Shown piece by piece: positions 421 to 60,500 of a stretch of 64,000 bases of DNA. A program made the position numbers and the translations under genes. Position 1 is the first letter of the stretch. The number at the start of each line of letters is the position of its first letter. The notes beneath the pieces are model-generated. The model saw only the letters and a program-made list of their open reading frames with translations. It had not been told where the DNA came from and made no database searches. This DNA is from a virus. The stretch is from positions 1 to 64,000 of IMG/VR virus record IMGVR_UViG_3300033998_000198, one strand, 5' to 3'.

Positions 421-432
421 GAGAAGGAGTGA

Positions 433-31768: not shown

Positions 31769-32283
31769 TGAAGGTTGATCTTGATTTTAGAGATGAAATG
31801 AATGAATGGATAAGAGATTATGGGGTTACAGTTCTGTACCAGAGAAGCAGCAATTACATAAAGTGTTCATGTGTAGACCCATTATATAAAGCTCCAGATT
31901 CAAGATGCACCAAATGTAATGGTACTGGCAAATTGATTAAAACTCAGAAGTTGAAGATCCTGATGCAGGAGCAATACCCTCCAAACAGAAAAGGACAGAG
32001 AAAAGGACAGTATGATTACTCTCAAGTTGGACAAATATACGCTCCTCAGATAACTTTCTACTTTGTCCATAACGAACCACCTAAAGTAAAAGATATAGTT
32101 TATATAGTCGGTTGGGATAAAGGAAGACCAGTAAATCTTATCAATATGTATGAGATCACGGGATTCCAAGGACATAGAGGGGAAGACGGAAGAATAGAAT
32201 TCTATATGATATCGGCAACAAGCAAGCCAGAACTGATGAGCAGGGGTAAAGAGTATTTAGATAGATTGAGGCGAATGAGATGA
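31768..32283 (+). CDS. Head-closure/neck protein with a Zn finger
   Basis: 'CSCVD...PDSRCTKCNGTG'; position between adaptor and sheath; overlapping start/stop. Confidence 0.55.
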   Translation: MKVDLDFRDEMNEWIRDYGVTVLYQRSSNYIKCSCVDPLYKAPDSRCTKCNGTGKLIKTQKLKILMQEQYPPNRKGQRKGQYDYSQVGQIYAPQITFYFVHNEPPKVKDIVYIVGWDKGRPVNLINMYEITGFQGHRGEDGRIEFYMISATSKPELMSRGKEYLDRLRRMR

Positions 32284-41762: not shown

Positions 41763-42359
41763 ATGTTTGATCCAAAACAAGTAGACACGTTAGTAGCTAC
41801 AGCAAGAGAGACTTTGCGTAGACAACAGGAGGAGATGACACCAGGAGAGCCGGAGAATTTCTATCAGGACTTGATAGATGAGCAAAACGGAGAACAGGAA
41901 AAAGTTAAAGTACCTGAGAACGATTATGAAATAAAGAATGCTCCGGATAGTTACGAAGAAAGACCACATATTGCAAACAAACCAAGTGCAGAAGATTATC
42001 AGGAATATCCTAAAATTGATGAATTCGATAAACCAATATTCCCTGGCGGTCCGCTGCAATCTCAAATCAACTCCTGGAAGAAACAGTTCACAGGATATGA
42101 CATTTACGTTACAGAAGTGGCCGGAGAATACTTTGTATTCAGGACTTTGAACCGTTTTGAATACAAACAGATTGTATCTTTGCAAAATACAGATCCTCTC
42201 ATGCGTGAGGAAATTATCTGTGAAACCGTTACACTGTGGCCGGCAGGTTATAAATGGGATAGCATGGCAACGGGGAAGGCCGGCATTCCATCTACTTATT
42301 CTCAGATTATCATGGAGAAATCAGGATTCACTAAAGATTACGCTATCCAAATACTATAA
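41763..42359 (+). CDS. Tail assembly chaperone 1
   Basis: 'YFVFRTLNRFEYKQI...EEIICETVTLWP...AGIPSTYSQIIMEKSGF'; position between tube and tape-measure loci. Confidence 0.7.
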   Translation: MFDPKQVDTLVATARETLRRQQEEMTPGEPENFYQDLIDEQNGEQEKVKVPENDYEIKNAPDSYEERPHIANKPSAEDYQEYPKIDEFDKPIFPGGPLQSQINSWKKQFTGYDIYVTEVAGEYFVFRTLNRFEYKQIVSLQNTDPLMREEIICETVTLWPAGYKWDSMATGKAGIPSTYSQIIMEKSGFTKDYAIQIL

Positions 42360-43066
42360 TGGAACAATTACAAGCATTCGATCTTTTGGTATTCAAGGAG
42401 CAGAATGAAGGTCACAGGGTCATGTATATCAATATTTGTAATCGTGAGTTTGTATTTAGGACTCTTGGAAAGAAGGAATACAAGAACATCCTGAATGTTG
42501 CAAATAATGAATTTGATCTCGAAGATATGATATGCCAGATTGCTTTGATATACCCTGAAGACTTTGACTTCAAGGATTGTCCTCTTGGAGGGTTGTCAAA
42601 GACAATTGCTCCTTTGATTACCGAACTTTCCGGATTTACCAATCCTGAGATCGTCCAGGAGACTTACGACCAGTATCGCCTGGAAATGAATAGTTTTGAG
42701 AATAAGGCATATGCCCTCATTAAGATGGCATTCCCCGAATTTACGTTTGAAGAAATGGAAGAATGGACATGGGATAAGGTTCTCAAGGTTGCAACAAAGG
42801 CAGAGTTTATCCTGAATGAAACTCACTTTAGAGATAACCCTATCGAGCTTGTCAAAGTAGACACTACGCCGCAGAAACAAATGGAACGCACTGAGTTTGT
42901 TCAGGAACTGCGGCAACAGGGTATTGACCCGATGAAATATTTCTGGAATGAAATTAATGTCAAGCCTCAATATGTAGACTTTCCGTTAATCGGTGGTGTG
43001 CATTGGCAGAACGAGGGGATATTGAATGAGATCAGACGACAGATGGAGAGAGCATCTAAGAGGTAA
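42359..43066 (+). CDS. Tail assembly chaperone 2 (paralogue)
   Basis: 'EFVFRTLGKKEYKNI...EDMICQIALIYP...GGLSKTIAPLITELSGF'; TAATG coupling to chaperone 1. Confidence 0.7.
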   Translation: MEQLQAFDLLVFKEQNEGHRVMYINICNREFVFRTLGKKEYKNILNVANNEFDLEDMICQIALIYPEDFDFKDCPLGGLSKTIAPLITELSGFTNPEIVQETYDQYRLEMNSFENKAYALIKMAFPEFTFEEMEEWTWDKVLKVATKAEFILNETHFRDNPIELVKVDTTPQKQMERTEFVQELRQQGIDPMKYFWNEINVKPQYVDFPLIGGVHWQNEGILNEIRRQMERASKR

Positions 43067-46000
43067 ATATCCAGAGTATCTGGGCAGACAGAGAAAATGG
43101 GCCGAAGATTATGACAGAGACGATACCGTAAAAGACGACAGCATCTTATCAAAACTGCTTATCGCTGCGGCGATAGGTGCTGCCGGATATGGTTTATATA
43201 AAAGCGGTGCATTAAGAAAGGCCATCAGTAAAGGCATTGATGAATTAGGGGAGTATAAAGGCGTTATCCCTGAAGCATTCAATGCCTTAAAAGCATGGAC
43301 TAAAACTGATGTGGATGTTCCAATCGGAAGCATATTCCGTCAGAATTTTTCCTCCTTAAAGTCTGTATCTAACTTTGTAAAGAACAAGGACATTATAAAT
43401 GACACCCTTGCCGATTTACGTGGTCTTCGTGAAATGGTTCAAAAGAGGATCGCACAGGTTAAAGATGAAGCCGACAGGATTACCAAAATGGCTGTCAAGG
43501 AAACAGACTTATTGTTTGAGATAGGTAATCTCAATGAAATGATGGATTCTGTCAAAGCAGACGATATACTGAAACGCCACCAAATGGAAATCGGAAACAA
43601 GGCACTTCAGACACTGATAGAAAAGAGAAGCGAAGGAGCTATGTCAAAGGCTGCCCAAGCAAAGCTCAAACAAAATGGATACAGGCTTCTTACTATAGGT
43701 GATGTTCTCAAGGTAGACACACAGACAAATAAACCGTTGCTTATTAACAGCACAAGCAGGTTCGAAGTAGAAGAACAGACATTAAAAGAACTGACAGATT
43801 TCTTCTCTACCTTTGAGGTAATAGACAAAAAGACCGGGAAGAAGTCTCTTGCAATCAATAACTTTGACATGATCAAAGACATCACATTCGATAGAGGACT
43901 CATGATCAATGAGTTCGGAAAGATTGCAGACATAAGGCGAGCTGACAGACACTTTGCACAGATGATGGTTTCTGCTTCGCTTGATTTTCATATACCGTTA
44001 ATAAAGATACGTCCGTTTGAAATGGTCGGACTGCATAACAAATTCATGCGTCAGGAAGTAAAATACGGTTATCTGTCTGCAAAAACATTTCAGCCAATAC
44101 TTACAGGTAAGCCCGGTCAGGAGTATCTCGGCAAGAGCATGGTGTTCATGCACGGTAATGTATTTGACATAGATAAAAACGGTAACATGAAATTAGTTGC
44201 CCAGGGAGGTAAACTGCTCCATATTCGTGACGACGCAAACGTTGGATATGGAATCAGCAAACACGCCGATATCATAAGAAAAATGGCAAACCTTCAGAAT
44301 GTACACTTCCAGACGTACACAGCCGAGGACGGACGAATCAAGGCGGCTTACTCTAAAGTGATGGAATGGTTCGGGCTTGGTTTCCAGGACAAGAAGATAT
44401 CAACGGAATTTGAACTCTTTAAGCCTTCAACATGGGATTCTCTACTTAATAAATGGCAGCCGTTCAGGCCATACAAATCCTCATTTGTAACAAGACCGCA
44501 GGATTCTTTCGGACATTCTCCGACAGGTCCTACGTATTTGTTTATGTATCAAGGCAAGACATTTAAAGACGTAATGCAAGGCAGCGTATCTATAGAGGAT
44601 TTCTTCAAGCAGTTTGTTGCAGGAAGAAAGAACTTGAAGAATGTAACTACGGCAACAATGGTTCCGTATCATCTTCTTGACCGTCTCAGCAACTCGCTGA
44701 GAGCTGTTAGTGCAGGTGGTATTAGCCTTGGCTTAAAGACAGAAGACCTTGGATCGGTCCAGGATATCTTCAAGAACTTGATGCTAAAGCGTATACTTCC
44801 GGTTTATCTTGGCATACAGGCTTGGATATACATAAATAACAAAGAAGAAGGCAAACAGCCTGAAGACAAGATTGCAAATACTGTTGTAAACCTCGACCTT
44901 GCATGGCATGGAGTAAAAGACAGGCTCGGCCTTACATCTTGGGCAAAACGTGTATCTCAGCTTATGCCAGGAGGAGAGCAGATAAGTGACATTCCCGGTC
45001 TTGGAGTTCTCGATATGACTTCAACCAGGGAGGAAAAAGAACAATGGTACAAGACTGGTATGGAGCCAATTCGTAAAGGGCGTTACTGGAGTCTTGGCAA
45101 TACTCCATTTACTGGAGGCAAGATAGAATATTATGCACCAAATTGGTACAGAAGGGTAATCAGCGATTACAAGTGGACAGATTCACAGTGGGGAAGTCGG
45201 GATGAATACTTTGCAAATGCTCCATTTCCGACTCCAAAATATCCTTTCGCTCCAATACGGCACTTTATTACTGACCCGTATCATTGGGAGAAAAAGCATT
45301 ATCATGACAGACCATATATGCTGTCGTCTCCGGCATTCAGTAATGTACCAATAGTAGGTCCTGTACTCAGTGCAACTCTTGGCCGGCTGTTAAAACCACA
45401 GATTCGCATGCATCCTGAAGCATGGGCACCAAAACTTGAAGGGTATTCGGTCGTGGATCAAGGAACAGGAGATAACACCGGTACTGTTCTTCCTGACCAA
45501 TTGGTTGCAACAAATAGGTTTCCTGGAACTGAAATCACAGTTGTCCCTGAAGCAGAAATGGGACAGAAGCCGCTTGATTCATTGTTTCATTGGAGCAGGA
45601 AACCGAAGACCAATACAAATGATATTATATATGTTACGCCAAGCGGGCAAACAAGCATTGTCAGCATACCTAACAGCATCTCAATCAAGGATTTGAACGA
45701 CCAATTACGTAAAGAATCAATCAGGAAAGTCCGTGGTGCGTCTGAGAAACGTGATGGTGGTCTGATTAAAGATAACGCTGTTGCAAAACAACTCATCAGC
45801 AATATCGAGAATACGTTAAATGACCAATACGATGTATTCTCTGAAATTGGAGGTATATATGGATTCGGTATCAATGCTCTTATAGGTAATGGTTCTGATG
45901 TTGGTGGTGTGGAAATCGAAACACCCGCCTATGCGACATCCTTAAATAAAGCATTCTGGGATCAGGATCTCGGTGGACTTGGTGGAGAATTCTCTGAAAT

Positions 46001-48617
46001 CTATCGTAGGTTTATACCAAAGAGAAGGCGTGAGATTGAATATTACAATCCAATCAGAAACACCATGCCTACATGGATGCCGGGAACAGATTATTTTACA
46101 GACTTCCAGCATGGTGATCCTTACGCCAAGATTAAACGTGGAGAAGCAAGACTTCCTGGAGAAGGGTATGAGAAGCTATATGGAATCAGAGACCCTATGG
46201 AGCTCGGAATAGGTTCGTCGTTTATAGGTAAATCAGTTGATGATATCGTTAAACATTTCTTACACCAGGACGAAATCATAGACGAAGACCAGCTTGATAT
46301 TGTGCAATCTGGTACAGATTTTCATGAGAAAGTTCAGTCGGCATGGAAAAAGAAAGGCTTGCTTCTTGATGCAGAAGTTGAAGTTAATGACAGGAAACAC
46401 AATGTCATTGGATTCTATGATGCACGTATTCTTGATGAATCTTCACCAACAGGCGACGCTATTGCTGAAATAAAGACAATCAACGATAATGGGTTTAAGG
46501 AACTTGACAAAAAAGGGCCAATGGATTACCACCAGAAACAGCTTAACTTCTATCTGTGGGCAACACATAGGCCAAAAGGTTATATTTATTACATCAACAG
46601 GGATCATCCGGAACAGGAAGCAAAAATATTCCCTATGGCATATGACCAGAAGATGATGGAAGAAACATTCAAGAATCTTGAGCAAGCCAGGAAGATCATC
46701 AAAGACAAAATAGCCTTAAATGAGATCCAAAGAGGAGACTTGTACGATTACTTTGACAGGTTCCGCATACTTGCAGATGTAGCACCATACTCAAAAGAGT
46801 TCAAAGAATACAGGGCTTTGATAAGCAAGATGCAGCTAACCAAGGAACAAGAGGCTGAAGCAAAGGAAATACGTAAGCGTGTAATTGAACAAAACAAACC
46901 GCTTAGGATATATCCTTATAAATTCCAGACTTCAAACATAAAAGTACAGACTGTAACTGTAAAACGCAAGATAGACAACGAGAAGTTCCTTACATATGAG
47001 TTCCCTGACAACCCAATAGAGCTTGCCGGCGTTAATCTTCCTAACAGCAAAACTTCCAAAGAAGGGAGGGCAGCAACTCAGTTTATTGACCGGTTTATCC
47101 ATGAAGGAGCCAGGATACAGGTCGGAGTTGATGCAGACCCGTTGAACCTTATACAGGATAACACTTATAAGACGATCAAAGCTGTCGTATACTCAGGCAA
47201 GACAAACATCAACCGCACGGCAATACAGCAGGGAGTAGGAAAGGAAAATGAAGATGACTTCTCGCCTGCCGGTGTTCATGCTCGTTTTACCGAAGGTGAA
47301 ATCAGATTCGGCAAAGTATGGGAGAAATTCGCTCACTTGAATACTATGTTCCATATAAAGTTCTTGCAGGTAAGGTCTGCACTTGAGAGTTATGAACGCA
47401 GGGATTTATACGGCAAAGACTTTCAAAGATGGGAGCATCCTATCCGGGACTTCCTCCGCCCAGCAATCGACCAGAATATAAACAACAAGTATGGAATACT
47501 GGTTGGCGGTTTGGTCGGCTCATTGTTTGGCCGTACACTTTATGGTAAAATTATAGGAGCAACAGTTGGTGTTGCAGTAATTGGTTCAGGTAAGGCATAC
47601 AAGAAAGCATATGAATTAATTTCAGGTGAGAAATGGATACCTGAACGCAGGGAAAAAGAACGTGATTTAAACGAATACATTGACATCCTGAAATTTATCA
47701 AATACAAGCGATTGTATGTTGAGTATGCACAGAAATCAAAACTCAAGGAGAACTTTGATGTTCAGAAGTTCCTTGACGCTCAGAAAGCTCGTGGTGAAAA
47801 AAATAAAGCAAGAATCAAGGATCTTGAAGAAGCAAAGAGGTTAATAAAAATCAAGGGCGACAGTGCAATACGGTCGATGTATAAACAGTATAGACCAAAA
47901 TACGGCACCCCAGGAATGAACGTGGACGAGATGATATCTGCAATCAACAAAGAAATGACAGAACTCATGAATGAACGAAAGGCCGTTAAAGTTCCAAAGA
48001 TTGCACAAAAGGCCATTGCATACTACAACTTATCAGAGAAGACCATGTACGGATACGATGTCGGAGAGCCTATCCAAAACATCCTGGCCGCAATGCCAAA
48101 GAAGGATAGACAGTATCTCAGTTACTTTATGAAAGCTCCGGAAGAAGAACGCATGAAGATTCTTGAGGTGGCTCCACGGTATGTCCGCAGGGTTCTCGAA
48201 CAAACATGGGGGCTGCCTGTTGAGGGCAAACCAGATCTTATTCAGTATTTCAAGCACCATCAACTTCCAGGACCTGACTGGGAAGGATGGGATGAAAACA
48301 TAAACCTGGATCTGGTTAAAGTTAAAATGGTTCGTAATGAAGCCCTTGATATTTCAGATTTTAATATCTGGGAAGACGACGTGCAGCAGGCAAAAGCAAT
48401 GGGACCTATTCCGCTGCCTAAACTATATATAAGTGACTATGCAGAGAAGGTAAAGGCAAAACTCGAAGATCTACTGCACGGAATAGGACTAAACGACGTA
48501 TCTGTAAGCTATTCTCTATCATCAAAGGATATTGATGTAGATATAGACCTGCAAAGAGACAAAAAGAAAGAGATAGAGAGGTACATTAACGAAAAAGGTG
48601 CATCTCTATTCCAATAG
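43026..48617 (+). CDS. Tape-measure-position protein with a PD-(D/E)XK nuclease and an SNase-like domain
   Basis: 1863 aa directly after the chaperones; Gly/Ala hydrophobic stretches; motifs GTDFH1100, E1117, D1132, E1148-I-K1150 and Q1172LNFY; SNase-like segment at ~46950-47260. Confidence 0.75.
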   Translation: MRSDDRWREHLRGKYPEYLGRQRKWAEDYDRDDTVKDDSILSKLLIAAAIGAAGYGLYKSGALRKAISKGIDELGEYKGVIPEAFNALKAWTKTDVDVPIGSIFRQNFSSLKSVSNFVKNKDIINDTLADLRGLREMVQKRIAQVKDEADRITKMAVKETDLLFEIGNLNEMMDSVKADDILKRHQMEIGNKALQTLIEKRSEGAMSKAAQAKLKQNGYRLLTIGDVLKVDTQTNKPLLINSTSRFEVEEQTLKELTDFFSTFEVIDKKTGKKSLAINNFDMIKDITFDRGLMINEFGKIADIRRADRHFAQMMVSASLDFHIPLIKIRPFEMVGLHNKFMRQEVKYGYLSAKTFQPILTGKPGQEYLGKSMVFMHGNVFDIDKNGNMKLVAQGGKLLHIRDDANVGYGISKHADIIRKMANLQNVHFQTYTAEDGRIKAAYSKVMEWFGLGFQDKKISTEFELFKPSTWDSLLNKWQPFRPYKSSFVTRPQDSFGHSPTGPTYLFMYQGKTFKDVMQGSVSIEDFFKQFVAGRKNLKNVTTATMVPYHLLDRLSNSLRAVSAGGISLGLKTEDLGSVQDIFKNLMLKRILPVYLGIQAWIYINNKEEGKQPEDKIANTVVNLDLAWHGVKDRLGLTSWAKRVSQLMPGGEQISDIPGLGVLDMTSTREEKEQWYKTGMEPIRKGRYWSLGNTPFTGGKIEYYAPNWYRRVISDYKWTDSQWGSRDEYFANAPFPTPKYPFAPIRHFITDPYHWEKKHYHDRPYMLSSPAFSNVPIVGPVLSATLGRLLKPQIRMHPEAWAPKLEGYSVVDQGTGDNTGTVLPDQLVATNRFPGTEITVVPEAEMGQKPLDSLFHWSRKPKTNTNDIIYVTPSGQTSIVSIPNSISIKDLNDQLRKESIRKVRGASEKRDGGLIKDNAVAKQLISNIENTLNDQYDVFSEIGGIYGFGINALIGNGSDVGGVEIETPAYATSLNKAFWDQDLGGLGGEFSEIYRRFIPKRRREIEYYNPIRNTMPTWMPGTDYFTDFQHGDPYAKIKRGEARLPGEGYEKLYGIRDPMELGIGSSFIGKSVDDIVKHFLHQDEIIDEDQLDIVQSGTDFHEKVQSAWKKKGLLLDAEVEVNDRKHNVIGFYDARILDESSPTGDAIAEIKTINDNGFKELDKKGPMDYHQKQLNFYLWATHRPKGYIYYINRDHPEQEAKIFPMAYDQKMMEETFKNLEQARKIIKDKIALNEIQRGDLYDYFDRFRILADVAPYSKEFKEYRALISKMQLTKEQEAEAKEIRKRVIEQNKPLRIYPYKFQTSNIKVQTVTVKRKIDNEKFLTYEFPDNPIELAGVNLPNSKTSKEGRAATQFIDRFIHEGARIQVGVDADPLNLIQDNTYKTIKAVVYSGKTNINRTAIQQGVGKENEDDFSPAGVHARFTEGEIRFGKVWEKFAHLNTMFHIKFLQVRSALESYERRDLYGKDFQRWEHPIRDFLRPAIDQNINNKYGILVGGLVGSLFGRTLYGKIIGATVGVAVIGSGKAYKKAYELISGEKWIPERREKERDLNEYIDILKFIKYKRLYVEYAQKSKLKENFDVQKFLDAQKARGEKNKARIKDLEEAKRLIKIKGDSAIRSMYKQYRPKYGTPGMNVDEMISAINKEMTELMNERKAVKVPKIAQKAIAYYNLSEKTMYGYDVGEPIQNILAAMPKKDRQYLSYFMKAPEEERMKILEVAPRYVRRVLEQTWGLPVEGKPDLIQYFKHHQLPGPDWEGWDENINLDLVKVKMVRNEALDISDFNIWEDDVQQAKAMGPIPLPKLYISDYAEKVKAKLEDLLHGIGLNDVSVSYSLSSKDIDVDIDLQRDKKKEIERYINEKGASLFQ

Positions 48618-48628: not shown

Positions 48629-51600
48629 ATGGCAATTAGACCGGTAATGAGTGCTAATATGAACAGTAACCTGAAGATGAACAGGTATAGTGATTTCTTC
48701 AATGGCATGGATGAAGAAAAGATTGACGCATATAAAAACGTCCGTGGAATGATAGATGAGTTAAAAGGTACTGAAGCCGACGTATCATTAAAGGACTTTT
48801 ATTTCAAGTCATTCAATGCAGGAGTAATGGATTATAACATTCCTGCACTTGAGCAAGGCATGAATATGTTTAATGATATGCTGGACGCCGGTGCCGGTTC
48901 TGTGTACGCAATGGACCTTGAAACTCTCGGCAACCCTTTTGGTGATGCATCAGAAAAGGGTTTGTTTGCCATTACAGAAATGACTCTTACCAAGAAAGAT
49001 CTCGCAACAGGTACTGTCCTTGACGTACAAAACGTCCTGTTCGGCCTTACTGAAGAACAAAGGCTTGCTTACGAAAATCTGATTGCCAGAGCTGAACTCG
49101 GATACAACTCATTGACCAGTTCAGAAAAGGCAACTATAGAACGTCTTGCAAGGTATGGAGCAAAGGATACTAAGATTATTAACAGAGGAGGCAAAGCAAT
49201 ACTTGCCAACCTCGGTATAGCTAATCCTATGGATCTTACCGCAGCAAAGAAGGGTTTAAATAGACTTGTAGATATAGGTCCCGGGCAGGCATGGGGTAGC
49301 CAGTTTGCCCGTGACCAGCTAATCATTGCATCAAATCACTTAAATCAGATAAAAGGCCCAAACAATATTTTGTTCACACACAACGGCAGCAAGTTTGATA
49401 TGCCTGCTTTTAACGAAGCATTACGTATGCATGGTATTAGCAATACAATTAACGACATAAACCATGTTGACTTTCAAGCTGCCATTCATACAGCATATGG
49501 TGGAGATACACTGAATCTTCACTTAACAGCCCGTGAAACAAACGGTGTAAAAGGTAAGATTAAAGGGGCTCTTGAAACTCTTGATAAACTTGCAGAATCT
49601 TTTGGTATAAGGACTCACGCCCATGTTGCCTCAAACGACAACAGGACGTTGATTAACCTTTTAACTGCTCCGTACAGGAAAACTGAGCATGGTACAATCA
49701 ATCTTGGCCAGGACTTAAAGTCCAGACTGAATGCATATTCAGTTCTGTCAAAACACCAGGACATTGATCCAAGCACTGTTGCTGACAAGGTTATATTCGT
49801 AAAGAATGCCGTATATACAAATGGTCTTGACTACATAAAAACAAGTGAAGGAATCAAACCTTACGGAGACTGGCCATTACAAAGGAATAATTTCTATAGG
49901 ATTGAAAATGTCGGGAAAGTAAATATCAAAGACACCGCTTCTTTGCGGAAGATAGGCATAAATGTGCCTGCCGGAAGCACTGGAAGTGATCTTTATTATA
50001 TGACACTACGCAATGTGGCTACCGGTAAAGAAGAAGAAACAATAAATATAGTACGTAGTTCAAGAGAAGAACTTCAGGCATTGTTCCAGAAAAATCTTGA
50101 GGTGTTCCGGTACACTAAAGACCTTAAAGATATAAGTTCAGACCTTGACGCAAAGATGGCATTGCAAAACCAGATTGTAAGCCAGGCAATGATTGATGAA
50201 ACGACAAGGCTTGCCACAAGGGACAATGCAAGACGTAAGTTTGAAGGTATGTTCCAGACTTCAGGTAAAGGGTTTAATTATGCCAAAGGAATGTACCAAA
50301 CCTATAATAATTTATACCAGAACGGCATTACAACAGCGGAAGAAGCGGCACTCTATATCCAAAACAATCCTACAAGTGAATTGTTAAGAGGTCTTCAGTA
50401 TAAAGGAGATATTATACCCGAACGTCGTAGTGATTTCCTTGAGATGTTCAACCTCATCAGAGATACTTCAGACACGATGACTACTGTAATCAACAGAATT
50501 GAATCCAACATCCCAGTCAAAGGAGAAGCTGGAACCGTCAAAAGGACTGTTGCTCTCGGACGTGCGTATGAGAATCTTCAGAATGCAATTATGCAAGCCT
50601 CCGGTGTTGCTGAGAACATAGCAAAGAACAGGAAGCTGATAACCCCATATCCAATGGATATTGACGTTATTAATATAGGTGTTGATGACATTCATAGAAT
50701 CACTGTAAGGGCTCGTTCTGTTGAAGAAGCAAGGATTAACATATTAAATGGAATAGACAAACTGGTAGGTACAGAGAAGAACAAGAGGGCAAGAGAAAAC
50801 AAACGAATGTTCTATCTAAGACGGCTTGCAGAGAATGTCTATGGAAAAGATTCAGAGAAGCTGGAACGTATGTTTGGTCAGCTTGACAGTGCATACTATA
50901 CTGCCGGAGAAATTGCAGGCGACCTTAACAAACAGTTCCTTGACGGAACATTAAATATCGGCCGTGACGAGATATACGCTACAGATCTTGATAGTTATGT
51001 CATCAATTCATCTACATTTGACCAGTTCATGGTTGATAATAACATTAACGTTCTTGGCTTGACCGACGCTGCAAGTGCCCATATCGGGTCTTTAACCGAG
51101 GCTTCTCTTGGCGATACAGTTGTCATGGAAAAAGGCGTGTTTACCATTAAGGATGAAAACCTTAGAAAACTCTTGATGGAGGATTATCACTATAGTGCAG
51201 ATAACGTGCACGACCTTATGAGAGGATTATATGGTAAAAGTCCGGATGGTACTGAATACGGCCTTGTCAATAAACATGGTTTGGTTGCCGAATTGTTTGT
51301 TGACGAAGAAGGGTATCTTTCTATAGCATTGACAGACAAGAAACATGCAACAGAATTATACGAATCTCTGGCAAAGAACGAGGTTCCAAAGAACGCGGCC
51401 ATATCAAGGCTTCCGCAGGTAAGCTATTATGGCGATGACACTGACCTGTTAAAGAAGGTGTCATTTGGAAGCGTTGAGAAACAGGTAACTACTGAACTTA
51501 ATACATATTATTCTCCTGGTTCGAGCGAAAGCTATTATAATAACATCAGGATAGCTGCAAGGGACACAACCAGCGAATCGCTAAACTCCCTTGTTAAACT

Positions 51601-54600
51601 CCACAGGGTTCTTCCTGACCTGATAGAAGCAGGAGAGTACGACAGAGCTTCAAGGCAGCTTACAAATACAATGGCTGCTCCTATATTTGGAGGTTCTGGT
51701 TTCTCAGGAAATACAACAGTAGCAATTGACGATATTCTTGCTGAAAAAGCTCTGCGTCCGAACGTATCCGATATTATCACGGCATCGACCGTAGATATGA
51801 CCGGACTTGTAAACTTCATCCCTGAGCTCTATAAAAGAGACGAAGAAATAAGAAATGACCTTAACCGCATACTTGTAAACAACAAAGCGATCGACGACAG
51901 ATTTATTGATAACTGGATAAGGGATATCCAGGCAGGAAACCTCAAACAATTCAGTGACATGGACATCGAGTTACGTGAATGGTACACGATGAATATGTTT
52001 GAAGGTCATAAGATACTGCATAAAATCCGCGACCTTAAAGCTGAAGGAGGACGTTTATTCCAGAAGGAAGTCTCATTACTTGACAGCTTGATTGCAAATG
52101 GAGCTTCGTTCTTTAACAAGGCTGAAAAAGTATCTGAGGGTATTGCTGTATTGGAAAATCCATTTGAGTATGTAACATATGGATTCATGAATGAGCTTTC
52201 CCGTCCTGTCGCAAGGCAATCACTTGCATTTCACGCCCTTGACCCAAGAGAACTTACAGGTGCTTCAGTTAAGCTCGAAGCGGCCGGTATGAAACTTGGA
52301 CAGACTGTAGTTACAGACAAAATGTATAACAAGTATCTGAAAAAGTATAGGTTTGAAACAGGAATTACCGGTGACATAAAGAATTTGAATGACACCGAGA
52401 TACTTGATGCAATAGAATCTCTTGACAAAGAAGAATTATACAAGAAGTATGGTAGGTCAAGAGTTGATAAGGTTATAAATGAATATAAGACAATCGGTAG
52501 TACATTCCAGCAGCACTCATTGATTAATCCGATGCTGACTGCTGACATATACAACAAACCTGAGCTTATAAAATTTGATGTGACAGGCAATAGTTTTGAG
52601 TTTGCCGAAGGGCTTGGTGTTGGTAAAAAAATCAAATCCGGTTCTTTACTCGGATACGAAATAGACGGAGAAACAAGAAGGGCTGTTGTATACAATGGTC
52701 AGGATGGAATAATCTCTGGATTTATCAACAGAAAGAACGCACAAAAAGTTGTCATAAAACCATTTAATGCACAGATAGATGAAATAAAGCTCATCATGGG
52801 AGGTGTTGAAAAATCTGTTGCATCTGTTGTAAACCGAGATGCCGAAATGCTTCCTATAGCTCAGGAAATCTGGGATAAACTATTTGGTAAGAGTACAGCG
52901 GTCGTAGGGCGATTTGAAATAGGAAAGCACGAAGCTGCAAGCATCGCATACGGTAGCACTATTACCAGAATGGCTGAAAGAGCTCTTGAGCATGGAGAAG
53001 CTGTACAGAATGAATTCGCCAATCTTTTAAACCAGAACCTTCCCGAATGGAATGGCCGATGGGAAGGAAACAAGTTTGTCATTTCAGGGAATCCGAATGC
53101 TGCCGGAGGACATTTCAGCGGCATACGAAACCTTGTTGATGCAATGAGAGATAAGGGTATTTATGATGATATCATAGCCGACTTTGACAATCCGAACACA
53201 AATACGCTGCGTACTTTGATATCTAAAGGTCAGATGTCCGAAATGTTTTCTGTCATGGAAGACGAAGCGGATATTTACGGAAAAGGTCTCAAAATTACAG
53301 ACCGTGAGTTACAGATTGCAGGTATTAGATCTGGAGAACAACCGACGGATTTCTTTTTCCAGGATGCCAACGGTAAATGGCAAAAGAAATTACAACCTGT
53401 TATTGACGCATGGCGTGAGGAAATCACACGAGAAAATATCGAGCTTGAGAACGGTAAATTACTTGAAACCAATTACAGCAAAGCAAAGAAAGACCTTAGA
53501 AATATAACCAACACATACAGTGCATTGCGTGGCGAAACACCGACAGCAGCTATTAAAGAACTTCATTTTGATGATGTAAAACCGATATTAAAAGGTGTTG
53601 ATGCTGCAACACTCGAAGATGCTTTAAAAGGGACTGTGTTTGAAGATGTTGCCGATGTGTTTAAGATTACCCTTCCAAATAATATGAAGGTCTTAAACAT
53701 GGTTACAGGCGAAATGGATGACCATATTTATATACCGTATCTGCACTCATACGATATTGACGGCAAGGTTATTACACATAACGCCCACAGAAAATCAGCA
53801 GACCTTCTAAGGATGCTTGACAGTATTGCCGAAGGCAAACTTCCTAACGGCGTAAGAAGCATGAGTCAATTACAGAGTGCATTAAATGACGCTTATGCTG
53901 AAGCTATGGCCGCATACGGGCGTGAACTGTCTGATGACAAGAACAGTATATTAAAGAGACATCTGGTGTCCGGAAGATTATCACATTCGGGACAGGGACT
54001 TGCTGGTGCTGTTGTTTCACCTGAATTATTCAAAAACGGCGAAGTAGATTCACGGCTTGCCGGAATTGTGCATAGCGATGTTGTAGAGAAGGTCGGAGAT
54101 AAAATACTCTATAAGGATGTTGCTTATACATCTGCTGAGATGCTCGAAGACATGGGTGTTAACTTTGCAGAGATAGGGCGGCAGGTTCTTGAAGACAAGA
54201 AAATACGTTCTCAGATTGGTGACGTGGACGCATTTATTGCAAGATCCGGATTTAACCGCTATGATCTTACAAAGGCACCTATAGACATTGACATGCTCCA
54301 TGAGATCATCAAGCAGAAGATACTGAAAGACAACAATCCTTATACAATAGATGATGCAAGGGAAGCCCTTGAGAACCTCACTCAGCTTGGTAAATATTAT
54401 GCAAGAGAAAAGGGTATCATGAGTATAATGCTTCGTTATCCGTCATTCTTGCAAACATCTCTTGGAGTAACAAATATCAGATTGTCTCCTTACATGCATG
54501 GTCGTAAATTCAACATCATGAGTTGGACGGCAGCAGGATTAAACGCCGACATTGACGCTGATAGACTTTCTGTATGGCTCAATCTTACAAAAACCGGAGG

Positions 54601-57523
54601 ACTTCAAGCTGATACTGAAGTTAAACAGAAAGCACTGATAGATGTATTTAACGCTCAAGCAAGAAACAATGCCAAGCTATTTAAGAAGGCTCTTGAAGAT
54701 TATGCCGACGTAGAGCCTGACGGACTCAAGGCTTATAGTGCAAAAGGCTTCGATGAATTTCTTGTCAAGAAGATTTCAAAGAAGTTAGGGTACACCGGAA
54801 CAGATCAGGAAATCTTCGACCAGTTTGATGCAAGATCCAACAAACTGATGGACCCTGAAAGAAGAATGACAGCCGTAAAGGCCAACTTTGACAAGGCCGG
54901 TATCGGTTATATATCAAACACTAATGTGATTGTAAGGGATATAGCTTTTGAACAATTCAGAGATTCTGGTGATATATATACACTTTCAAACATCCTTGAG
55001 TTTACAGACAAGACAGAGCAGAAACTGATTGACGTTAAGCATATGAAAACAATGGGCGAGGGAAGCGGTAATATTGATGATATCATTATCAAAGCCGGAC
55101 GATACAGAACTGCAATAAACACCCTCGCAACAGGTGATGCAAGGCAAAAAGATGAAGCAATCAACAAACTTCGTGAAATTTTGTTCAATAGTGATGTTTA
55201 CAAGAGAGAGCAGTCCGTAAGGGTTGATGAAGTTCTCAGTTCGCTCCGTCAATTGTTTGACAGCAAGTATGCAAAACAATGGACAAACCCAATCAGAAGC
55301 AAGATGTCAGGAAAAAATTATGCCGAACAGATTAAGGACGTCAATAACTTCCTGAAGAATCCCACAGCATACGGCGGGACTGAGTTAACAAATCTTTCTG
55401 TCAATGAAGTGATTCATGCAAATGATATAGACACTATAAGCATTGACGATACAGCTCTTGTTCCTCCATCAAAAGGAACAGAATATCCCGTCTTGCTAAA
55501 GGACAGTGCTGGCAAAACATCTCCACCAATAGGTGCATATGTATATAGTGGTTCAGGTGTTGGTGCCAATACCAATATGAAGTATGTTGAGCTTGAAGAA
55601 TTCATCACAGATCCTTCTGTAAACAAAGCAAGAAGCAAACGTTACAGGATATACGGCAATACAATGGCTGATATCCAGCGTCAGATGAGAGATGAGTTCA
55701 GAGTAGCAACTGACATCAATGATGTCCAGAATTTGATTGATGTTGAGAAGGGTAGAATCCTTGACTCGGCGATGTCAAGCGGTTTTGAGTTCGAGAAAGA
55801 GCGTATTACGGCTGAATTCTTAAACGGTGGAAGTATTGATGATATTTTGGCCAAATCAACCATAGGGGTAGAGAACCGTCAGGATATCATCGATCATCTT
55901 ACCAATCTTAACCCTACTCAATATCAAAGCGAAGCATACAGGCAATTGGCTTCAGAGTTCTTTGACAACGAAATGACTGGCCGGCCAATGCGTAGATTCT
56001 CTGCCGCAGTATCAGAACTGGCTGAAAGAAATTACATTGGAAACCAGGCAAGTCTTATACAGGCATTTAATAACTATATACGGCAACGTGGTGCTGAAGG
56101 CCCTTCAGACAAATGGAATCCTGCAATGATTTCAGATGTCCATGATGAATTAATCCGAAAGGCATTGTATCAGGTTCCAGGTCTTCCATCAGCACAGATA
56201 GAAGGAATCCTAAACCAGGTTAACACCGTAGCGGACGATATGATAGCCCGTAAAGGAGAAATACGGTTAAGACCTGCTAAAGTACAGAATGTTGCCGAGA
56301 CTATTGCAAGAATACAGGATACTCCATTGTATGACATGAAAAGTGCCTTCTCTCAACTTGAGAACATGGCAAACGATATGTTAGGCAATATAACAAAAAC
56401 TCAACTGGAAAGTTTTGCTGAAGCAACACGGCTTAGTCCCGAAGATGCTATCGCAAAACTTAGGCATACTGTAAAGAACGAGAATATCCAACTTCCATTC
56501 AAGGCAATCACTCAGGCTGAAAGCGTTAAGATAGCTTCGCTTAACCAAATGTATTCAGAGCTTCTTGCGTCAAAGAACCAAGAAGCAATGGATTTCCTTG
56601 GCTGGAAACCTATAAATGAAGTTGTCAACGCATACAACCCAAGTGCGGCAGCAAGAGCTGTAGGTGAAACTTACGACCCAATTGCGGCCATACGTGAAAT
56701 TGGCCAATCCAAAGTTACTTATGGAAGATATGCCGGCATGGAGTTCTCGTCATTATCAATCGGGGAGCTCAAGGAAATTATGAATCTCCGTCCTGAAACT
56801 GCAAAGACCAGAATTGAAGCGGACAATATTGTAGCTCTCAAACAAAGAGTAAATCAATATTTCTCATTGCTTGACCAGAATACATCAGCAGTAAGAGCTG
56901 AAGGAATTAGTATAAATATTCCTGAAGCTGTACGCAAATCGAGGTATGTTGATGTAGATATAAACGAACTTTTAAAGTCCAATGGTATAAAGTTAAAGAA
57001 CTTGGACGATTTATTGGATACAACCAAAAGGGACTTAAAATTTGATATGGCTCGTGGTACAATAAAAGAAGGGGTAGAAAATGCTGTCAAGCGTTCCGAA
57101 GATTTGTTTGGAAGCAGTAAGTTCGGAAAGATAGCTCTTGCCGGTTTGGCTCTTGGTCTTGCAGGATATATTGTTGGACAGATGAGTGCAAAACCAGGAC
57201 CGCTACAACCGGAGCATAGACCTTCAGGCGAAGGAGCTCCCGCACCAGATGGAACTTACGAACCGAAAGTCAACTATAAAACACCACAACCGCAGATGCC
57301 AAAGAAAGCAGTAATGCAGGAAAACAATTCTGGAATGCGGATAAAGATAAGTGCAAAGAATGGAACCAGCATGTCAAACAGTGATGTTGCTGGAGCAGTA
57401 AACAAAGCCATCGCTGATTCCTTGCCAAATAGAATGAATGTCAACGTGGTTTCAAGAGACGACACCAGTGCAGTCAATGACAGTTGGTTGGAAGAACAGT
57501 TTAAGAGGCTTATAGGAGGGTGA
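48629..57523 (+). CDS. Giant single-chain two-barrel RNA polymerase with an N-terminal DEDDh exonuclease (putative virion RNAP)
   Basis: beta-like: PF...RQ1197, K1387LIMGGVEK1395, G1553LKITDRE. beta'-like: SGR1783LSHSG, LR1936YP, N1972ADIDAD1978. Exonuclease: D96LE98, H251NGSKFD257, H332VASND337. Confidence 0.85.
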   Translation: MAIRPVMSANMNSNLKMNRYSDFFNGMDEEKIDAYKNVRGMIDELKGTEADVSLKDFYFKSFNAGVMDYNIPALEQGMNMFNDMLDAGAGSVYAMDLETLGNPFGDASEKGLFAITEMTLTKKDLATGTVLDVQNVLFGLTEEQRLAYENLIARAELGYNSLTSSEKATIERLARYGAKDTKIINRGGKAILANLGIANPMDLTAAKKGLNRLVDIGPGQAWGSQFARDQLIIASNHLNQIKGPNNILFTHNGSKFDMPAFNEALRMHGISNTINDINHVDFQAAIHTAYGGDTLNLHLTARETNGVKGKIKGALETLDKLAESFGIRTHAHVASNDNRTLINLLTAPYRKTEHGTINLGQDLKSRLNAYSVLSKHQDIDPSTVADKVIFVKNAVYTNGLDYIKTSEGIKPYGDWPLQRNNFYRIENVGKVNIKDTASLRKIGINVPAGSTGSDLYYMTLRNVATGKEEETINIVRSSREELQALFQKNLEVFRYTKDLKDISSDLDAKMALQNQIVSQAMIDETTRLATRDNARRKFEGMFQTSGKGFNYAKGMYQTYNNLYQNGITTAEEAALYIQNNPTSELLRGLQYKGDIIPERRSDFLEMFNLIRDTSDTMTTVINRIESNIPVKGEAGTVKRTVALGRAYENLQNAIMQASGVAENIAKNRKLITPYPMDIDVINIGVDDIHRITVRARSVEEARINILNGIDKLVGTEKNKRARENKRMFYLRRLAENVYGKDSEKLERMFGQLDSAYYTAGEIAGDLNKQFLDGTLNIGRDEIYATDLDSYVINSSTFDQFMVDNNINVLGLTDAASAHIGSLTEASLGDTVVMEKGVFTIKDENLRKLLMEDYHYSADNVHDLMRGLYGKSPDGTEYGLVNKHGLVAELFVDEEGYLSIALTDKKHATELYESLAKNEVPKNAAISRLPQVSYYGDDTDLLKKVSFGSVEKQVTTELNTYYSPGSSESYYNNIRIAARDTTSESLNSLVKLHRVLPDLIEAGEYDRASRQLTNTMAAPIFGGSGFSGNTTVAIDDILAEKALRPNVSDIITASTVDMTGLVNFIPELYKRDEEIRNDLNRILVNNKAIDDRFIDNWIRDIQAGNLKQFSDMDIELREWYTMNMFEGHKILHKIRDLKAEGGRLFQKEVSLLDSLIANGASFFNKAEKVSEGIAVLENPFEYVTYGFMNELSRPVARQSLAFHALDPRELTGASVKLEAAGMKLGQTVVTDKMYNKYLKKYRFETGITGDIKNLNDTEILDAIESLDKEELYKKYGRSRVDKVINEYKTIGSTFQQHSLINPMLTADIYNKPELIKFDVTGNSFEFAEGLGVGKKIKSGSLLGYEIDGETRRAVVYNGQDGIISGFINRKNAQKVVIKPFNAQIDEIKLIMGGVEKSVASVVNRDAEMLPIAQEIWDKLFGKSTAVVGRFEIGKHEAASIAYGSTITRMAERALEHGEAVQNEFANLLNQNLPEWNGRWEGNKFVISGNPNAAGGHFSGIRNLVDAMRDKGIYDDIIADFDNPNTNTLRTLISKGQMSEMFSVMEDEADIYGKGLKITDRELQIAGIRSGEQPTDFFFQDANGKWQKKLQPVIDAWREEITRENIELENGKLLETNYSKAKKDLRNITNTYSALRGETPTAAIKELHFDDVKPILKGVDAATLEDALKGTVFEDVADVFKITLPNNMKVLNMVTGEMDDHIYIPYLHSYDIDGKVITHNAHRKSADLLRMLDSIAEGKLPNGVRSMSQLQSALNDAYAEAMAAYGRELSDDKNSILKRHLVSGRLSHSGQGLAGAVVSPELFKNGEVDSRLAGIVHSDVVEKVGDKILYKDVAYTSAEMLEDMGVNFAEIGRQVLEDKKIRSQIGDVDAFIARSGFNRYDLTKAPIDIDMLHEIIKQKILKDNNPYTIDDAREALENLTQLGKYYAREKGIMSIMLRYPSFLQTSLGVTNIRLSPYMHGRKFNIMSWTAAGLNADIDADRLSVWLNLTKTGGLQADTEVKQKALIDVFNAQARNNAKLFKKALEDYADVEPDGLKAYSAKGFDEFLVKKISKKLGYTGTDQEIFDQFDARSNKLMDPERRMTAVKANFDKAGIGYISNTNVIVRDIAFEQFRDSGDIYTLSNILEFTDKTEQKLIDVKHMKTMGEGSGNIDDIIIKAGRYRTAINTLATGDARQKDEAINKLREILFNSDVYKREQSVRVDEVLSSLRQLFDSKYAKQWTNPIRSKMSGKNYAEQIKDVNNFLKNPTAYGGTELTNLSVNEVIHANDIDTISIDDTALVPPSKGTEYPVLLKDSAGKTSPPIGAYVYSGSGVGANTNMKYVELEEFITDPSVNKARSKRYRIYGNTMADIQRQMRDEFRVATDINDVQNLIDVEKGRILDSAMSSGFEFEKERITAEFLNGGSIDDILAKSTIGVENRQDIIDHLTNLNPTQYQSEAYRQLASEFFDNEMTGRPMRRFSAAVSELAERNYIGNQASLIQAFNNYIRQRGAEGPSDKWNPAMISDVHDELIRKALYQVPGLPSAQIEGILNQVNTVADDMIARKGEIRLRPAKVQNVAETIARIQDTPLYDMKSAFSQLENMANDMLGNITKTQLESFAEATRLSPEDAIAKLRHTVKNENIQLPFKAITQAESVKIASLNQMYSELLASKNQEAMDFLGWKPINEVVNAYNPSAAARAVGETYDPIAAIREIGQSKVTYGRYAGMEFSSLSIGELKEIMNLRPETAKTRIEADNIVALKQRVNQYFSLLDQNTSAVRAEGISINIPEAVRKSRYVDVDINELLKSNGIKLKNLDDLLDTTKRDLKFDMARGTIKEGVENAVKRSEDLFGSSKFGKIALAGLALGLAGYIVGQMSAKPGPLQPEHRPSGEGAPAPDGTYEPKVNYKTPQPQMPKKAVMQENNSGMRIKISAKNGTSMSNSDVAGAVNKAIADSLPNRMNVNVVSRDDTSAVNDSWLEEQFKRLIGG

Positions 57524-57530: not shown

Positions 57531-60500
57531 GTGGCAGACTATAGAAAAAGCACTTCCCTGTTCTCTAAATACAGAGATCCGGGAGGTATTAGCACAGGCG
57601 AGCTATTAGACAGATATTACAACATTCCCGAAGGCAGGACTACAGCTCCCCTGTCTTACCTTGATAATGTCGATTTTCCGCATAGGATATTCGATTTCCA
57701 TTATAACTTCAGACTTGGCGATTGTCAGTTCAAGATCCCTCCGGAATTCATACAGGTAAAGACAATTACCGAAACAAATTCCGTTGTAGGAATTAGACAG
57801 TCTACTTCGCTAAAAACCAAATCCGGGTATAGCCGTAAACAGATCGTTATTACTCTGTTTTTCAACGGACTTAACCAGATCAACGGATATAAATGTGAAT
57901 CGCCTTTTTCATATCCTTACTACATGGACGGTCTCCGGAGTCTTCTTGCTCAATTCAAGAGGACCCCGTTCCTTCCTGTTGTAAATGAACTTATTAATGG
58001 AGTACATGGAATATACAATGTAGCATTATCAAACATTACAATCAACACCGTACAGGGGTTTCCTGAATGTCTCCAGGCGGAACTCACGTTGCTTGACTTT
58101 AACGTCGTACCGTTGATTGAAGCTCCTCCTTTTATGTATCATAACATGATAGACTGGGATATGTTCAGATGGTACTATCAGCAATTACTTCGCCCTGATG
58201 ACAGGGTATACGACAGGAACGAACATGCTACAACAAGACTTCAGCCGATACAGAATACAAACCTTACAGGTAAGTTCGGATTGTATATATTAAGCGAAGA
58301 AGCTCTTGCTGCAATGAACGACGGAAAGTACAAGCCAGACCTAAGCGACAGCAGTAACTATATACTGTGTGTTGACGACGAAACCGGTATACGCCTGACA
58401 GATATATTCTGCGGTTACTCAAACGTGCTTCCTGCAATACAGTTAAGCAAAGAAGGGACGCCTACGTATCAGTATCTTGGAGGTACAGATGCGACGTTTA
58501 CCTTTATATTTGAAACTCAGGACAGAGATGTCGTTACGGCTCTGGTTGACTTAAATGAACGATGCCAGAGGATGGTAAGGGAGTACCGCAAACTTCACGG
58601 CCTCGGCTTCATCAAAATAGAGAACGAATTAGTGCAAATGCTCGGTGCACAGTATGTCATGTTCAATACAATGGACATCACTACTGTGCCCGACTTCCCA
58701 GATTTGTTTAGAATACAGATAGAGGCTGTAAGTTACGATATTGACCAGAGTAAGAAAGAAACATTGACTGGCATGAAGCCTTTCGATGGCGATGGCACAT
58801 TGCTTGCCAGAAAAGTAGGTACAACCTATGATTGGACTGAAGTCGCAGAACCAAACACAACCATCACTAACACTTATATGGGTCTTATCACAAAGATCCG
58901 GCAGGACAATTACATAGAACACAAGATGAAGCTCATGGACCTTTATCCGGACCTTCAGCTACCTACGTTTGAAGAATTGGATGATTTTATCACAACCATA
59001 AGAGAATGGAGAAGGAGTAAGGGGCTTCAGGCATATCCTTTGTCTGGACCGTACCCGAAAGACGACGGTAGAATTAAATTCTCAGATCCTGATTTCTACG
59101 TTTTCTACCCTATTAAATACGGAGACGCACAGAATATTATAACAGGAACCGGAGGAAATGTAGGAGGAGAAACTTACGATCCTGATGACGGTGCAATTTC
59201 AGTTGCCGGTATATTCAAGTCTGGATTGTATGGTGCAACAGAAACTACGCCCGGACAGCACCCAAAGACACAAGAATTGCTTAAACTTCTTGAGAGCAAA
59301 ATAGGATGCGGATATGTATGGGGTGCTGAAGGAGAGATTCTTACTCAGGAAGGTCTTGCTGCCTTAAAGAAGCAATTTGGAGCAAGTCATTATGATTTTG
59401 TTGATGATGATGGCACTCGTGTTCTTGCAAGTAAATGGATAGGTAAACAGGTGTTCGACTGCTCTGGATTTATTAACTGGGGGCTTATCCAGGTTGGAAT
59501 TGCTCCAAAAGGATACAGAACCACACATTCAACTACTTTTAATGACTGGTGTATCGAAATCAAAAAGAGCGAAATACTCCCTGGCGATATAGCCATGAAT
59601 TCAACCCATATCGCAATGATATCTGATCCTGACAAAGATCAAACAATCGAGGCTATGGGTACACGGTACGGTGTTGTTCACGGAAAGATAGGGAATAGAT
59701 TCACAAAGTTTGGAAGACTAAAAGGCGGAAAGACAAAGAGCTCAACAACTCCAACACCGAATGCCGCAACTCAACAGGTTAGCAAGGCACAGACTACAGA
59801 TTACAATGCAAAGCGTGATGCTTATAACCCGACATACCAGGCAATTTACGATTATGCAAACATACAGTGCACAAAGCTCGGCGTTCCAATTCGTCTAATG
59901 TGTGCAATGATGGAGATAGAAAGTAATTGGACACAATGGTGGACGACAGCAGGGAAGAAAGCGGATGGCAAGTACCATAACGCAGGAGATGTTGTAAGGT
60001 CTTACGCAAATGCTGTTGGTATCTGCCAAATTGTGCACCATAGTCCTAACGGTACTCCTGTCAATAATCAATACGATTATGACAAACTGCAAAATGACTG
60101 GAGATATAATATAGAGTGCGGGGCCAAAGAACTTTATGAATGCTATAAGGGGGCATCACAAAGATTTACAAATGAAGAAGACCGAGCAAGAGCTGCATGG
60201 TGTGCATATAACATGGGGCGTTATGCAAGTCAGAGCTATACAAGATGGAGAGATAACCCTAACAGGGATGATATAAAGTTTAAGGAATATTATGAGAAGC
60301 AACCCTGGTTATCGAGAATTGACACCGCAAAGATTCCGACTTCCAATGGGACAGATTACACTGGAAGCGTAGAAGTTCCAGAAACCGACCTTAGTGTTAC
60401 AAACAACTTTGCAAGTCTTAACTTCAACAGGGAGGAATTCGGCAAAGATATACGCAGACTGTCCGACATCCACGGCGGTGTAAAAGAAACCAAGAACTTT

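Follow-up and report, generated by a model that had tools for sequence, protein, structure and literature searches.

A giant gene at the tape-measure position of an uncultured 0305phi8-36-like phage encodes a predicted exonuclease and a one-chain two-barrel RNA polymerase core

The window analyzed here is a stretch of 64,000 nucleotides (nt) of viral DNA, namely the first 64 kb of the 131.9-kb IMG/VR record IMGVR_UViG_3300033998_000198, which was judged 61% complete. Its genes include those for a portal and a major head protein and, for both the tail sheath and the tail tube, a pair of paralogues, as well as a plus-strand gene of 2964 codons (48629-57523) for a protein of 2964 amino acids (aa). 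The initial annotation, made from the letters alone, had described this gene as a single-polypeptide two-barrel RNA polymerase (RNAP) lying in the tail tape-measure locus. The open reading frame (ORF) is real and open throughout, as seen from an ORF listing and its translation; it is preceded by a GGGGG ribosome-binding site 8-9 nt upstream of its ATG and is packed tightly against both neighbours, with 8 nt between its stop and the start of the next gene. Its product is best explained as a multi-enzyme protein of ~330 kDa in the tape-measure slot of a large myovirus akin to 0305phi8-36, where it is presumably a virion component. The gene and its parts are as follows.

48629-57523, plus strand: whole gene, comprising exonuclease, intervening region, one-chain two-barrel RNAP core, variable tail and C-terminal module (translation; 35 homologues)
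48872-49747, plus strand: predicted DEDDh (DnaQ-like) 3'-5' exonuclease domain, aa ~82-373 (D96, E98, N252, D257, H332 and D337 conserved)
49748-51943, plus strand: mixed alpha/beta region, aa 374-1105 (AlphaFold2 predicted local distance difference test score, pLDDT, about 80; D401, Y423, D532, R535, R536 and D1048 conserved)
51944-53428, plus strand: beta-like half of the RNAP core, aa ~1106-1600, including R1192-P-x3-Q1197 and a barrel-sandwich (flap-like) insert at aa ~1310-1382
52787-52813, plus strand: K1387-x6-E1394-K1395, candidate basic pair of the beta-type barrel (conservation; consecutive model strands)
53438-55228, plus strand: beta'-like half of the RNAP core, aa ~1604-2200
53939-53992, plus strand: K1771-x-S-...-L-x-S-G-R1783-x3-S1787-G motif (aligned to E. 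coli rpoC 316-355 at E 0.004 by hhalign and, for the stretch, at E 5.8e-5 by hmmsearch)
54434-54562, plus strand: core of the beta'-type double-psi barrel, R1936-Y-P1938 followed by the N-A-D1974-I-D1976-A-D1978 metal-binding loop
55229-57061, plus strand: poorly conserved region, aa 2201-2811, which may serve as a spacer or as part of a ruler (least conserved columns of the family alignment; no Pfam match)
57062-57520, plus strand: C-terminal module in common with gp146 of Bacillus phage 0305phi8-36 (BLASTP, hhalign and hydropathy scan)

When the whole 2964-aa protein was searched as a single sequence against Pfam, PHROGs and PDB sequences, no match was obtained, and a word-indexed protein search found two relatives only. 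An exhaustive HMMER search with aa 1100-2200 was needed to recover 35 homologues, most of them 2800-3170 aa in length, all metagenomic and none named. In deposited phage genomes (50,697 phage records, searched by tblastn with the query and two distant homologues), no homologue was detectable. Contig scans for related loci returned nothing among genome contigs and, among viral contigs, nothing with the single protein and only the contig of homologue P0003 with a three-sequence alignment.

Conservation was assessed in an alignment of 29 full-length homologues (2512-3172 aa, 19-44% identical to the query, about 20% mean column identity). In the polymerase part, R1192, K1387, E1394, K1395, H1434, R1936, P1938, D1974, D1976 and D1978 are each kept in 97-100% of the homologues (97% for K1387, 100% for E1394 and K1395), followed by K1555 (93%), Q1197 (86%) and P1193, R1559, R1783 and S1787 (83% each), with G1929, K2089, S2096, E2130 and K2137 also near-invariant. 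The near-invariant positions of the exonuclease part are D96, E98, E117, N252, D257, D281, H332 and D337, and across the alignment such columns are mostly charged or polar. Near-invariance of catalytic positions against so low a mean identity points to selection on catalysis, and as a sequence pattern it indicates probable enzymes and not a ruler. The Asp triad, the conservation of which the initial annotation had made a test of its proposal, is held in 28 of the 29 homologues in the context l-N-a-D-x-D-G-D. The only member without it, P0028 (3008 aa), has N-D-Y-V-E-G-H instead and also lacks K1387 and R1936; this may be an inactivated copy.

The fold of the polymerase core was predicted with AlphaFold2 from the family alignment, yielding a confident model of aa 1100-2200 (pLDDT 84.5, predicted template modelling score 0.84). 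A Foldseek search of this model against the PDB gave 254 matches at E <= 0.001; the matches listed are all RNAP beta' chains (best E 1.7e-6, probability 0.99-1.0). The first half of the model matches beta-type subunits and the second half beta'-type subunits, while both halves together match known one-chain two-barrel RNAPs; QDE-1 and RDR2 are also among the whole-model fold matches. Double-psi-barrel domains match model residues 686-916, the segment that holds R-x-P and the Asp triad. Biotinyl-like barrel-sandwich domains match model residues 211-283, directly before K1387, which is the position of the flap in beta, and K1387 and E1394-K1395 lie on consecutive model strands (287-291 and 295-300). 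Several hallmarks of the two-barrel superfamily are present in the predicted chain: a beta'-type double-psi barrel with a DxDxD metal loop, a beta-type region N-terminal to it, a counterpart of the beta' segment K-x-G-...-L-x-G-R-x3-S-G together with an R-x-P ahead of the triad, and two halves packed as in solved one-chain enzymes.

Sequence profiles gave results of the same kind for the beta'-like half. A 30-sequence family profile matches beta' chains in the PDB collinearly (E 0.002-0.03), and phiKZ gp55 as well, whereas a shallow three-sequence profile had no match there. When a local profile of the beta' half was compared with E. coli rpoC, two segments aligned, 316-355 and 442-475 (AYNADFDGDQ...), with a full-sequence E of 3.5e-8 (search space of one) versus 0.055 for the rpoB control; both hhalign and hmmsearch identify the K1771...S1787-G motif as the counterpart of the beta' 316-355 segment. 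The beta-likeness of the first half is read from the fold match, in other words from the predicted model. Taken together, the family-wide catalytic signature, the fold matches of the model to beta/beta' and one-chain two-barrel RNAPs, and the profile alignment to beta' motifs support the single-chain architecture in rpoB-then-rpoC order that the initial annotation had put forward, and the fold is very likely that of a true two-barrel polymerase whose site is intact.

That proposal had been built on seven quoted strings, equated with six motifs of E. coli beta and beta'. All seven strings are located at the residues given for them (PFEY 1178, SRPVARQ 1191, KLIMGGVEK 1387, GLKITDRE 1553, ILKRHLVSGRLSHSG 1774, IMLRYP 1933 and NADIDAD 1972), and the E. 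coli strings used for comparison are likewise correct in wording and position (beta K1065/K1073, GQRFGEME 1267 and MQRQ 685; beta' motif at 339, LLNRAP 422 and NADFDGD 458). The spacings also hold: K1387 and K1395 are 8 residues apart, as are beta K1065 and K1073, and R1936 precedes D1974 by 38 residues, compared with 35 in E. coli. As equations, the six fared unequally. Two beta' matches were confirmed by the profile alignment to rpoC; the equivalence of R-x-P to that of beta' is drawn from spacing only, with R1936 and P1938 97% conserved; the three beta matches could not be confirmed by sequence, and are plausible given the identical K-x7-K spacing and the invariance of the residues; PFEY itself is not conserved in the family. 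Since DxDxD arises in 63% of composition-preserving shuffles of the 2964-aa protein, the motif strings by themselves are weak evidence, and the signal comes from their conservation. NxDxDxD appears in 7.5% of such shuffles, and RxP followed after 30-45 residues by NxDxDxD in 0.2%.

Upstream of the polymerase core, aa 82-373 is a predicted DEDDh 3'-5' exonuclease with an intact active site, a domain that the first reading of the sequence had missed. In the AlphaFold2 model of aa 1-1100 (pLDDT 81.8), this segment adopts a DnaQ-like fold, the family profile matches ExoI in the PDB at E 6e-5, and the Exo I DxE, Exo II NxxxxD and Exo III HxxxxD motifs are present on an RNase H-like fold with all five catalytic residues conserved. 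The best fold matches of the domain (VIA-align) include Pol III epsilon and the exonuclease domains of family-B polymerases; Foldseek on the N-terminal model returned none at E <= 0.001. The adjoining aa 374-1105, which is folded confidently in the model, has no Pfam or Atlas match; in the fold search, matches to the exonuclease domain took up the list, and this region was barely probed. For five family members, Pfam searches with aa 374-1100 and aa 2200-2964 gave sub-threshold noise only, and aa 380-1100 had no usable match in the ESM Atlas. For the C-terminal part, Atlas scores reached about 0.8 only, and a lambda tape-measure C-terminal cluster at 0.78 is not evidence of kinship.

The last ~150 residues begin their recognisable features with a helix that a hydropathy scan marks as hydrophobic (aa 2832-2850; 57122-57178); next come a stretch rich in Pro and Gly and an acidic/aromatic end that is conserved, NVNV..DD.S..D.WLE.QF. 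This module matches gp146 of 0305phi8-36 both by BLASTP (26% identity over 158 columns, E 2e-9) and by hhalign (probability 91%, E 1.2e-6), and only the C-terminus of gp146 aligns to the family profile. According to the annotation of the 0305phi8-36 record, gp146 was found in virions by mass spectrometry. It has been called a tape measure mainly from its length, and its prophage-like relatives align only over the last 60 residues (Hardies et al., PMC2147016). CDS0027 of Moorella phage MTATph1 gave no convincing match to the C-terminal profile, and neither 0305phi8-36 nor MTATph1 had any match to aa 1100-2200.

The tail locus places the gene in a known lineage. Among cultured phages, the tail sheath is most closely related to those of Moorella phage MTATph1 and Bacillus phage 0305phi8-36, and the gene order of the window is the tail gene order of 0305phi8-36. 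From these cultured relatives and from cell-wall-binding domains, we infer a putative Firmicutes host, and the lysin domains likewise point to Gram-positive hosts. The tail genes correspond as follows.

32280-33830 and 34652-36961: two tail-sheath paralogues, counterparts of gp139 (two are found in 0305phi8-36 as well)
37032-37838 and 37904-39430: two tail-tube paralogues, counterparts of gp140/141 (again two, as in 0305phi8-36)
gp142 in the 0305phi8-36 order: virion protein, between the tube and the chaperones
41763-43066, plus strand: pair of tail chaperone genes (products of 198 and 235 aa), corresponding to gp143/gp144 (phrog_29362 and phrog_29368, shared paralogous domain; 0305phi8-36 annotation; PMC2147016)
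43026-48617, plus strand: upstream giant, 1863 aa, counterpart of virion protein gp145 (phrog_1990, E 1.2e-5)
57531-63161, plus strand: downstream giant, 1876 aa, baseplate hub with cell-wall hydrolases, counterpart of gp147 (phrog_20474, E 5.7e-287)
gp148 in the 0305phi8-36 order: P2 gpV-like protein, after gp147

Placement in the tape-measure locus was borne out by synteny with 0305phi8-36 and with four metagenomic relatives. The contigs of P0003, P0004, P0007 and P0027 keep the order of chaperone pair, giant of ~1870-1976 aa, RNAP gene, hub/hydrolase giant of 1600-2289 aa, and baseplate genes, and in P0027 this holds at only 24% identity. The earlier description of the gene as embedded between tail chaperones and baseplate hub needs one amendment: the hub does adjoin it, but the chaperone pair lies one gene further upstream, with the giant at 43026-48617 intervening, as in 0305phi8-36. 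By position, following the chaperone pair and preceding the hub, the gene agrees with a tape measure. By structure it does not resemble a typical one, in that aa 1-1100 and 1100-2200 are predicted to be compact mixed alpha/beta and not extended alpha-helical or coiled-coil; nor does it match any Pfam or PHROG tape-measure family, and only its C-terminal ~150 aa match gp146, itself assigned by length and position.

Several observations concern the neighbours themselves. The upstream giant carries, at aa ~1119-1225, a RecB/Cas4-type PD-(D/E)xK signature, of which five homologues keep D1122, D1132, K1150 and Q1172-x3-Y1176 without change, and it has a glycine-rich hydrophobic stretch near aa 1490-1530; its profile had no match in the PDB. 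It may be a second injected enzyme. In the downstream giant, Pfam SLT scores above the cut-off, while NlpC/P60 is weak and below it. The C-terminal segment of the longer tube paralogue matches endolysin PHROG families and is possibly wall-binding. Outside the window, just downstream of the baseplate genes, lies a 4110-aa open frame (68019-80351, plus strand).

The closest functional precedent comes from a different kind of phage. In the Thermus siphovirus P23-45, the N-terminus of the 5002-aa tape measure gp96 is a two-barrel RNAP (Chaban et al. 2024, PMC10770324); it transcribes the pre-early genes, including the gene of a second RNAP, gp64, and was proposed to work at the tape-measure pore during DNA entry (PMC10770324). 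The text and supplements of that study make no mention of 0305phi8-36 or of Firmicute myoviruses (PMC10770324), and a search of the full-text literature found no paper on a polymerase in the tape-measure slot of 0305phi8-36-like phages. As to the earlier remark that no characterised example was known in a Firmicutes myovirus, a virion two-barrel RNAP fused to a tape measure is known in gp96 (PMC10770324); the design is known in print only for the unrelated Thermus phage P23-45.

The two proteins occupy the same slot (gp96 also in P74-26, G20c and TSP4; PDB 8H2M/8H2N) and differ in several respects. P23-45 is a siphovirus, whereas the phage described here is contractile-tailed; the gp96 polymerase is N-terminal (aa 327-1124 of 5002), whereas here it is central (aa ~1106-2200 of 2964) and located behind a DEDDh exonuclease; and gp96 carries a metallopeptidase, none of which was seen in the 2964-aa protein. 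The gp96 chain is not among the PDB sequence matches listed for the protein or its family profile, and the fold match to gp96 is weaker than that to cellular and jumbo-phage beta/beta' subunits; neither sequence homology to gp96 nor its arrangement of N-terminal polymerase followed by a long tape measure is found. The gene looks like an independent fusion and not a gp96 orthologue, and its function is likened to that of gp96 by analogy.

Other systems resemble this gene in part. Protein gp146 of 0305phi8-36 is also a giant (2537 aa) in the same slot with the C-terminal ~150 residues in common, but it has no polymerase region. In the jumbo-phage split RNAPs (the non-virion RNAPs of AR9 and phiKZ, PDB 7S00 and 7OGP) and in cellular beta/beta', the two halves are separate chains; here they form one chain, much shorter than beta plus beta', inside a tail-module protein, with no other subunits identified. 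One-chain RNAPs of the YonO/QDE-1 type (PF05183) include orf99 of 0305phi8-36; the orf99-like enzyme of a complete relative (G001, see below) is encoded by a separate gene elsewhere in the genome, and the tail-slot RNAP has no PF05183 match. There is also a likeness to crAss-like phi14:2 gp66 and the virion RNAP of coliphage N4, giant virion-delivered polymerases of early transcription that sit inside larger proteins (PMC10770324); both belong to podoviruses and are head-carried, and the N4 enzyme is T7-like and not two-barrel. A viral fold library was also compared with the polymerase model, and the top matches there are giant uncharacterised phage proteins, crAss-like giants being among the matches. 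The two best, BFVD A0A8S5SD80_1 and A0A7R7G2L5_2 (E 5e-16 and 3e-15), span about 1100-1175 alignment columns and are pieces of giant proteins; the match at E 5e-16 is annotated "minor tail protein" and comes from an uncultured siphovirus. Further polymerases embedded in tail proteins may sit unannotated in public data.

Packaging and ejection of the protein are inferred from gene position and from the C-terminal module in common with the virion protein gp146. In the mechanism envisaged, that module would recruit or dock the protein at the hub during tail assembly. Upon sheath contraction, the protein and the two giants encoded next to it, one with the RecB-like nuclease and one with the hub and wall hydrolases, would leave before the DNA does, and its hydrophobic helix would hold it at a membrane channel. 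There, the polymerase would transcribe the first-entering genes, probably including that of a YonO-like RNAP of the phage, in parallel to the gp96/gp64 model of P23-45, while the exonuclease might trim nucleic-acid 3' ends at entry, whether of host or phage DNA or RNA or of backtracked transcripts.

A second polymerase of this kind is encoded by a relative. The contig of P0003 is a complete genome (G001, 199.8 kb, with terminal repeats) that carries a 41%-identical homologue of the RNAP gene and, in addition, a PF05183 (YonO/QDE-1-type) RNAP (E 1.8e-34; G001:62850-67682, ORF 73-3426, minus strand, ~1117-1190 aa). Phage 0305phi8-36 likewise encodes a YonO/QDE-1-type RNAP, orf99 (PMC2147016; PMC7824862). 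An hhalign comparison of the tail-slot polymerase, as a shallow 3-sequence profile, with the orf99-like protein of G001 gave a probability of 0.2%, and the 2964-aa protein itself had no match to PF05183. Thus, judging from predicted products, the lineage can carry two unrelated-looking two-barrel RNAPs, as P23-45 does. Separately, an AT-rich motif, GTTA-N(2-6)-AAAANTTATAA, has 8 copies in the genome record of the window versus 0.16 expected from shuffles. The copies, at 92717, 93038, 93049, 94629 (minus strand), 98846 (minus strand), 111462, 125165 and 126750 (minus strand), all lie outside the window and are all intergenic in the non-structural arm, with none in the structural arm; the motif is absent from G001, 0305phi8-36 and MTATph1. 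It is a candidate phage-specific promoter.

The full interpretation, that of an injected early transcriptase, is probable, and several findings weigh against it. A folded globular core of 1100 residues cannot fit the lumen of a tail tube and must be stored unfolded or elsewhere. Presence in the virion is extrapolated from gene position and about 150 residues in common with gp146, a protein that lacks DxDxD and in which nothing matching aa 1100-2200 could be detected. In addition, the beta-half profile gave no meaningful sequence alignment to E. coli rpoB, the homologue P0028 does without the Asp triad, and the genome record to which the window belongs, only 61% complete, yielded no second RNAP. 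Two-barrel enzymes include the DNA polymerase PolD and the RNA-dependent QDE-1, and the protein might be injected with a core that is not an early transcriptase but a primer-making or DNA-synthesising/repair polymerase, or a motor that pulls the genome in. A DEDDh exonuclease next to a polymerase is the classic proofreading arrangement, the exonuclease matches in fold those of Pol III epsilon and family-B polymerases, QDE-1 and RDR2 occur among the whole-model matches, and polymerase-driven DNA entry has been raised for the 0305phi8-36 lineage (PMC2147016). Yet by far the strongest matches are DNA-dependent RNAP beta/beta', extending to the flap-like insert and the beta' motifs, a PolD chain is absent among the matches listed, and the precedent gp96 is a transcriptase (PMC10770324), so that this alternative is unlikely.

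It is quite improbable that the gene encodes a real RNAP of the tail operon that is expressed late and stays out of the particle. The family is known from genes alone, and 0305phi8-36 manages with a protein at the tape-measure position that has no polymerase; but the strict position between chaperone pair and hub is held across very divergent relatives, the C-terminal module with its hydrophobic helix is common to a virion protein, and an unpackaged late product could not serve early transcription. The notion of a structural tape measure in which the polymerase-like fold is an exapted, dead scaffold is very improbable: it would agree with the fairly constant length of the family (2800-3170 aa), as for a ruler, and with the loss of the Asp triad in P0028, but not with a metal triad, an R-x-P, a K...EK pair and five exonuclease residues that are near-invariant against a mean column identity of about 20%, nor with folded parts that are predicted to be globular alpha/beta and not extended helices. 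That the motifs arose by chance in a very long protein, as the frequency of DxDxD among shuffles and the lack of conservation of PFEY might suggest, is scarcely credible, and this explanation was rejected on the agreement of conservation, fold matches and profile alignments. An injected early transcriptase is thus the reading retained here.

Before 2024, the prevailing view of tape measure proteins was that they act passively, as rulers and as formers of channels. With gp96 of P23-45 it has since been demonstrated that a tape measure can carry the first transcriptase of a phage (PMC10770324), and the present locus suggests a gp96-like solution in large phages with contractile tails, relatives of a Bacillus phage that has long been known. 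Here the domains come in another order, an exonuclease is added, and the core is closer to the split beta/beta' of jumbo phages and cells than to gp96, which suggests that two-barrel RNAPs were recruited into the tail slot more than once and independently. The results allow a family of proteins of about 3000 residues, labelled "hypothetical" or "tape measure" and known only from metagenomes, to be re-annotated, make available a compact polymerase with fused beta and beta' parts for work on structure and evolution, and raise the physical question of how a folded multi-domain enzyme of 330 kDa is stored and passed through a tube, all of which is relevant to specialists in phage transcription and tail assembly. 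Tentatively, and with rather less than even confidence, we propose that in an uncultured branch of 0305phi8-36-like myoviruses the "tape measure" is an injected enzyme train, composed of a DEDDh exonuclease and a fused beta-beta' RNAP and flanked by RecB-nuclease and hub-hydrolase giants, which would have arisen independently of P23-45 and from multisubunit-type and not YonO-type RNAPs. If true, such an enzyme train would couple genome entry through the contractile tail to the first round of transcription.

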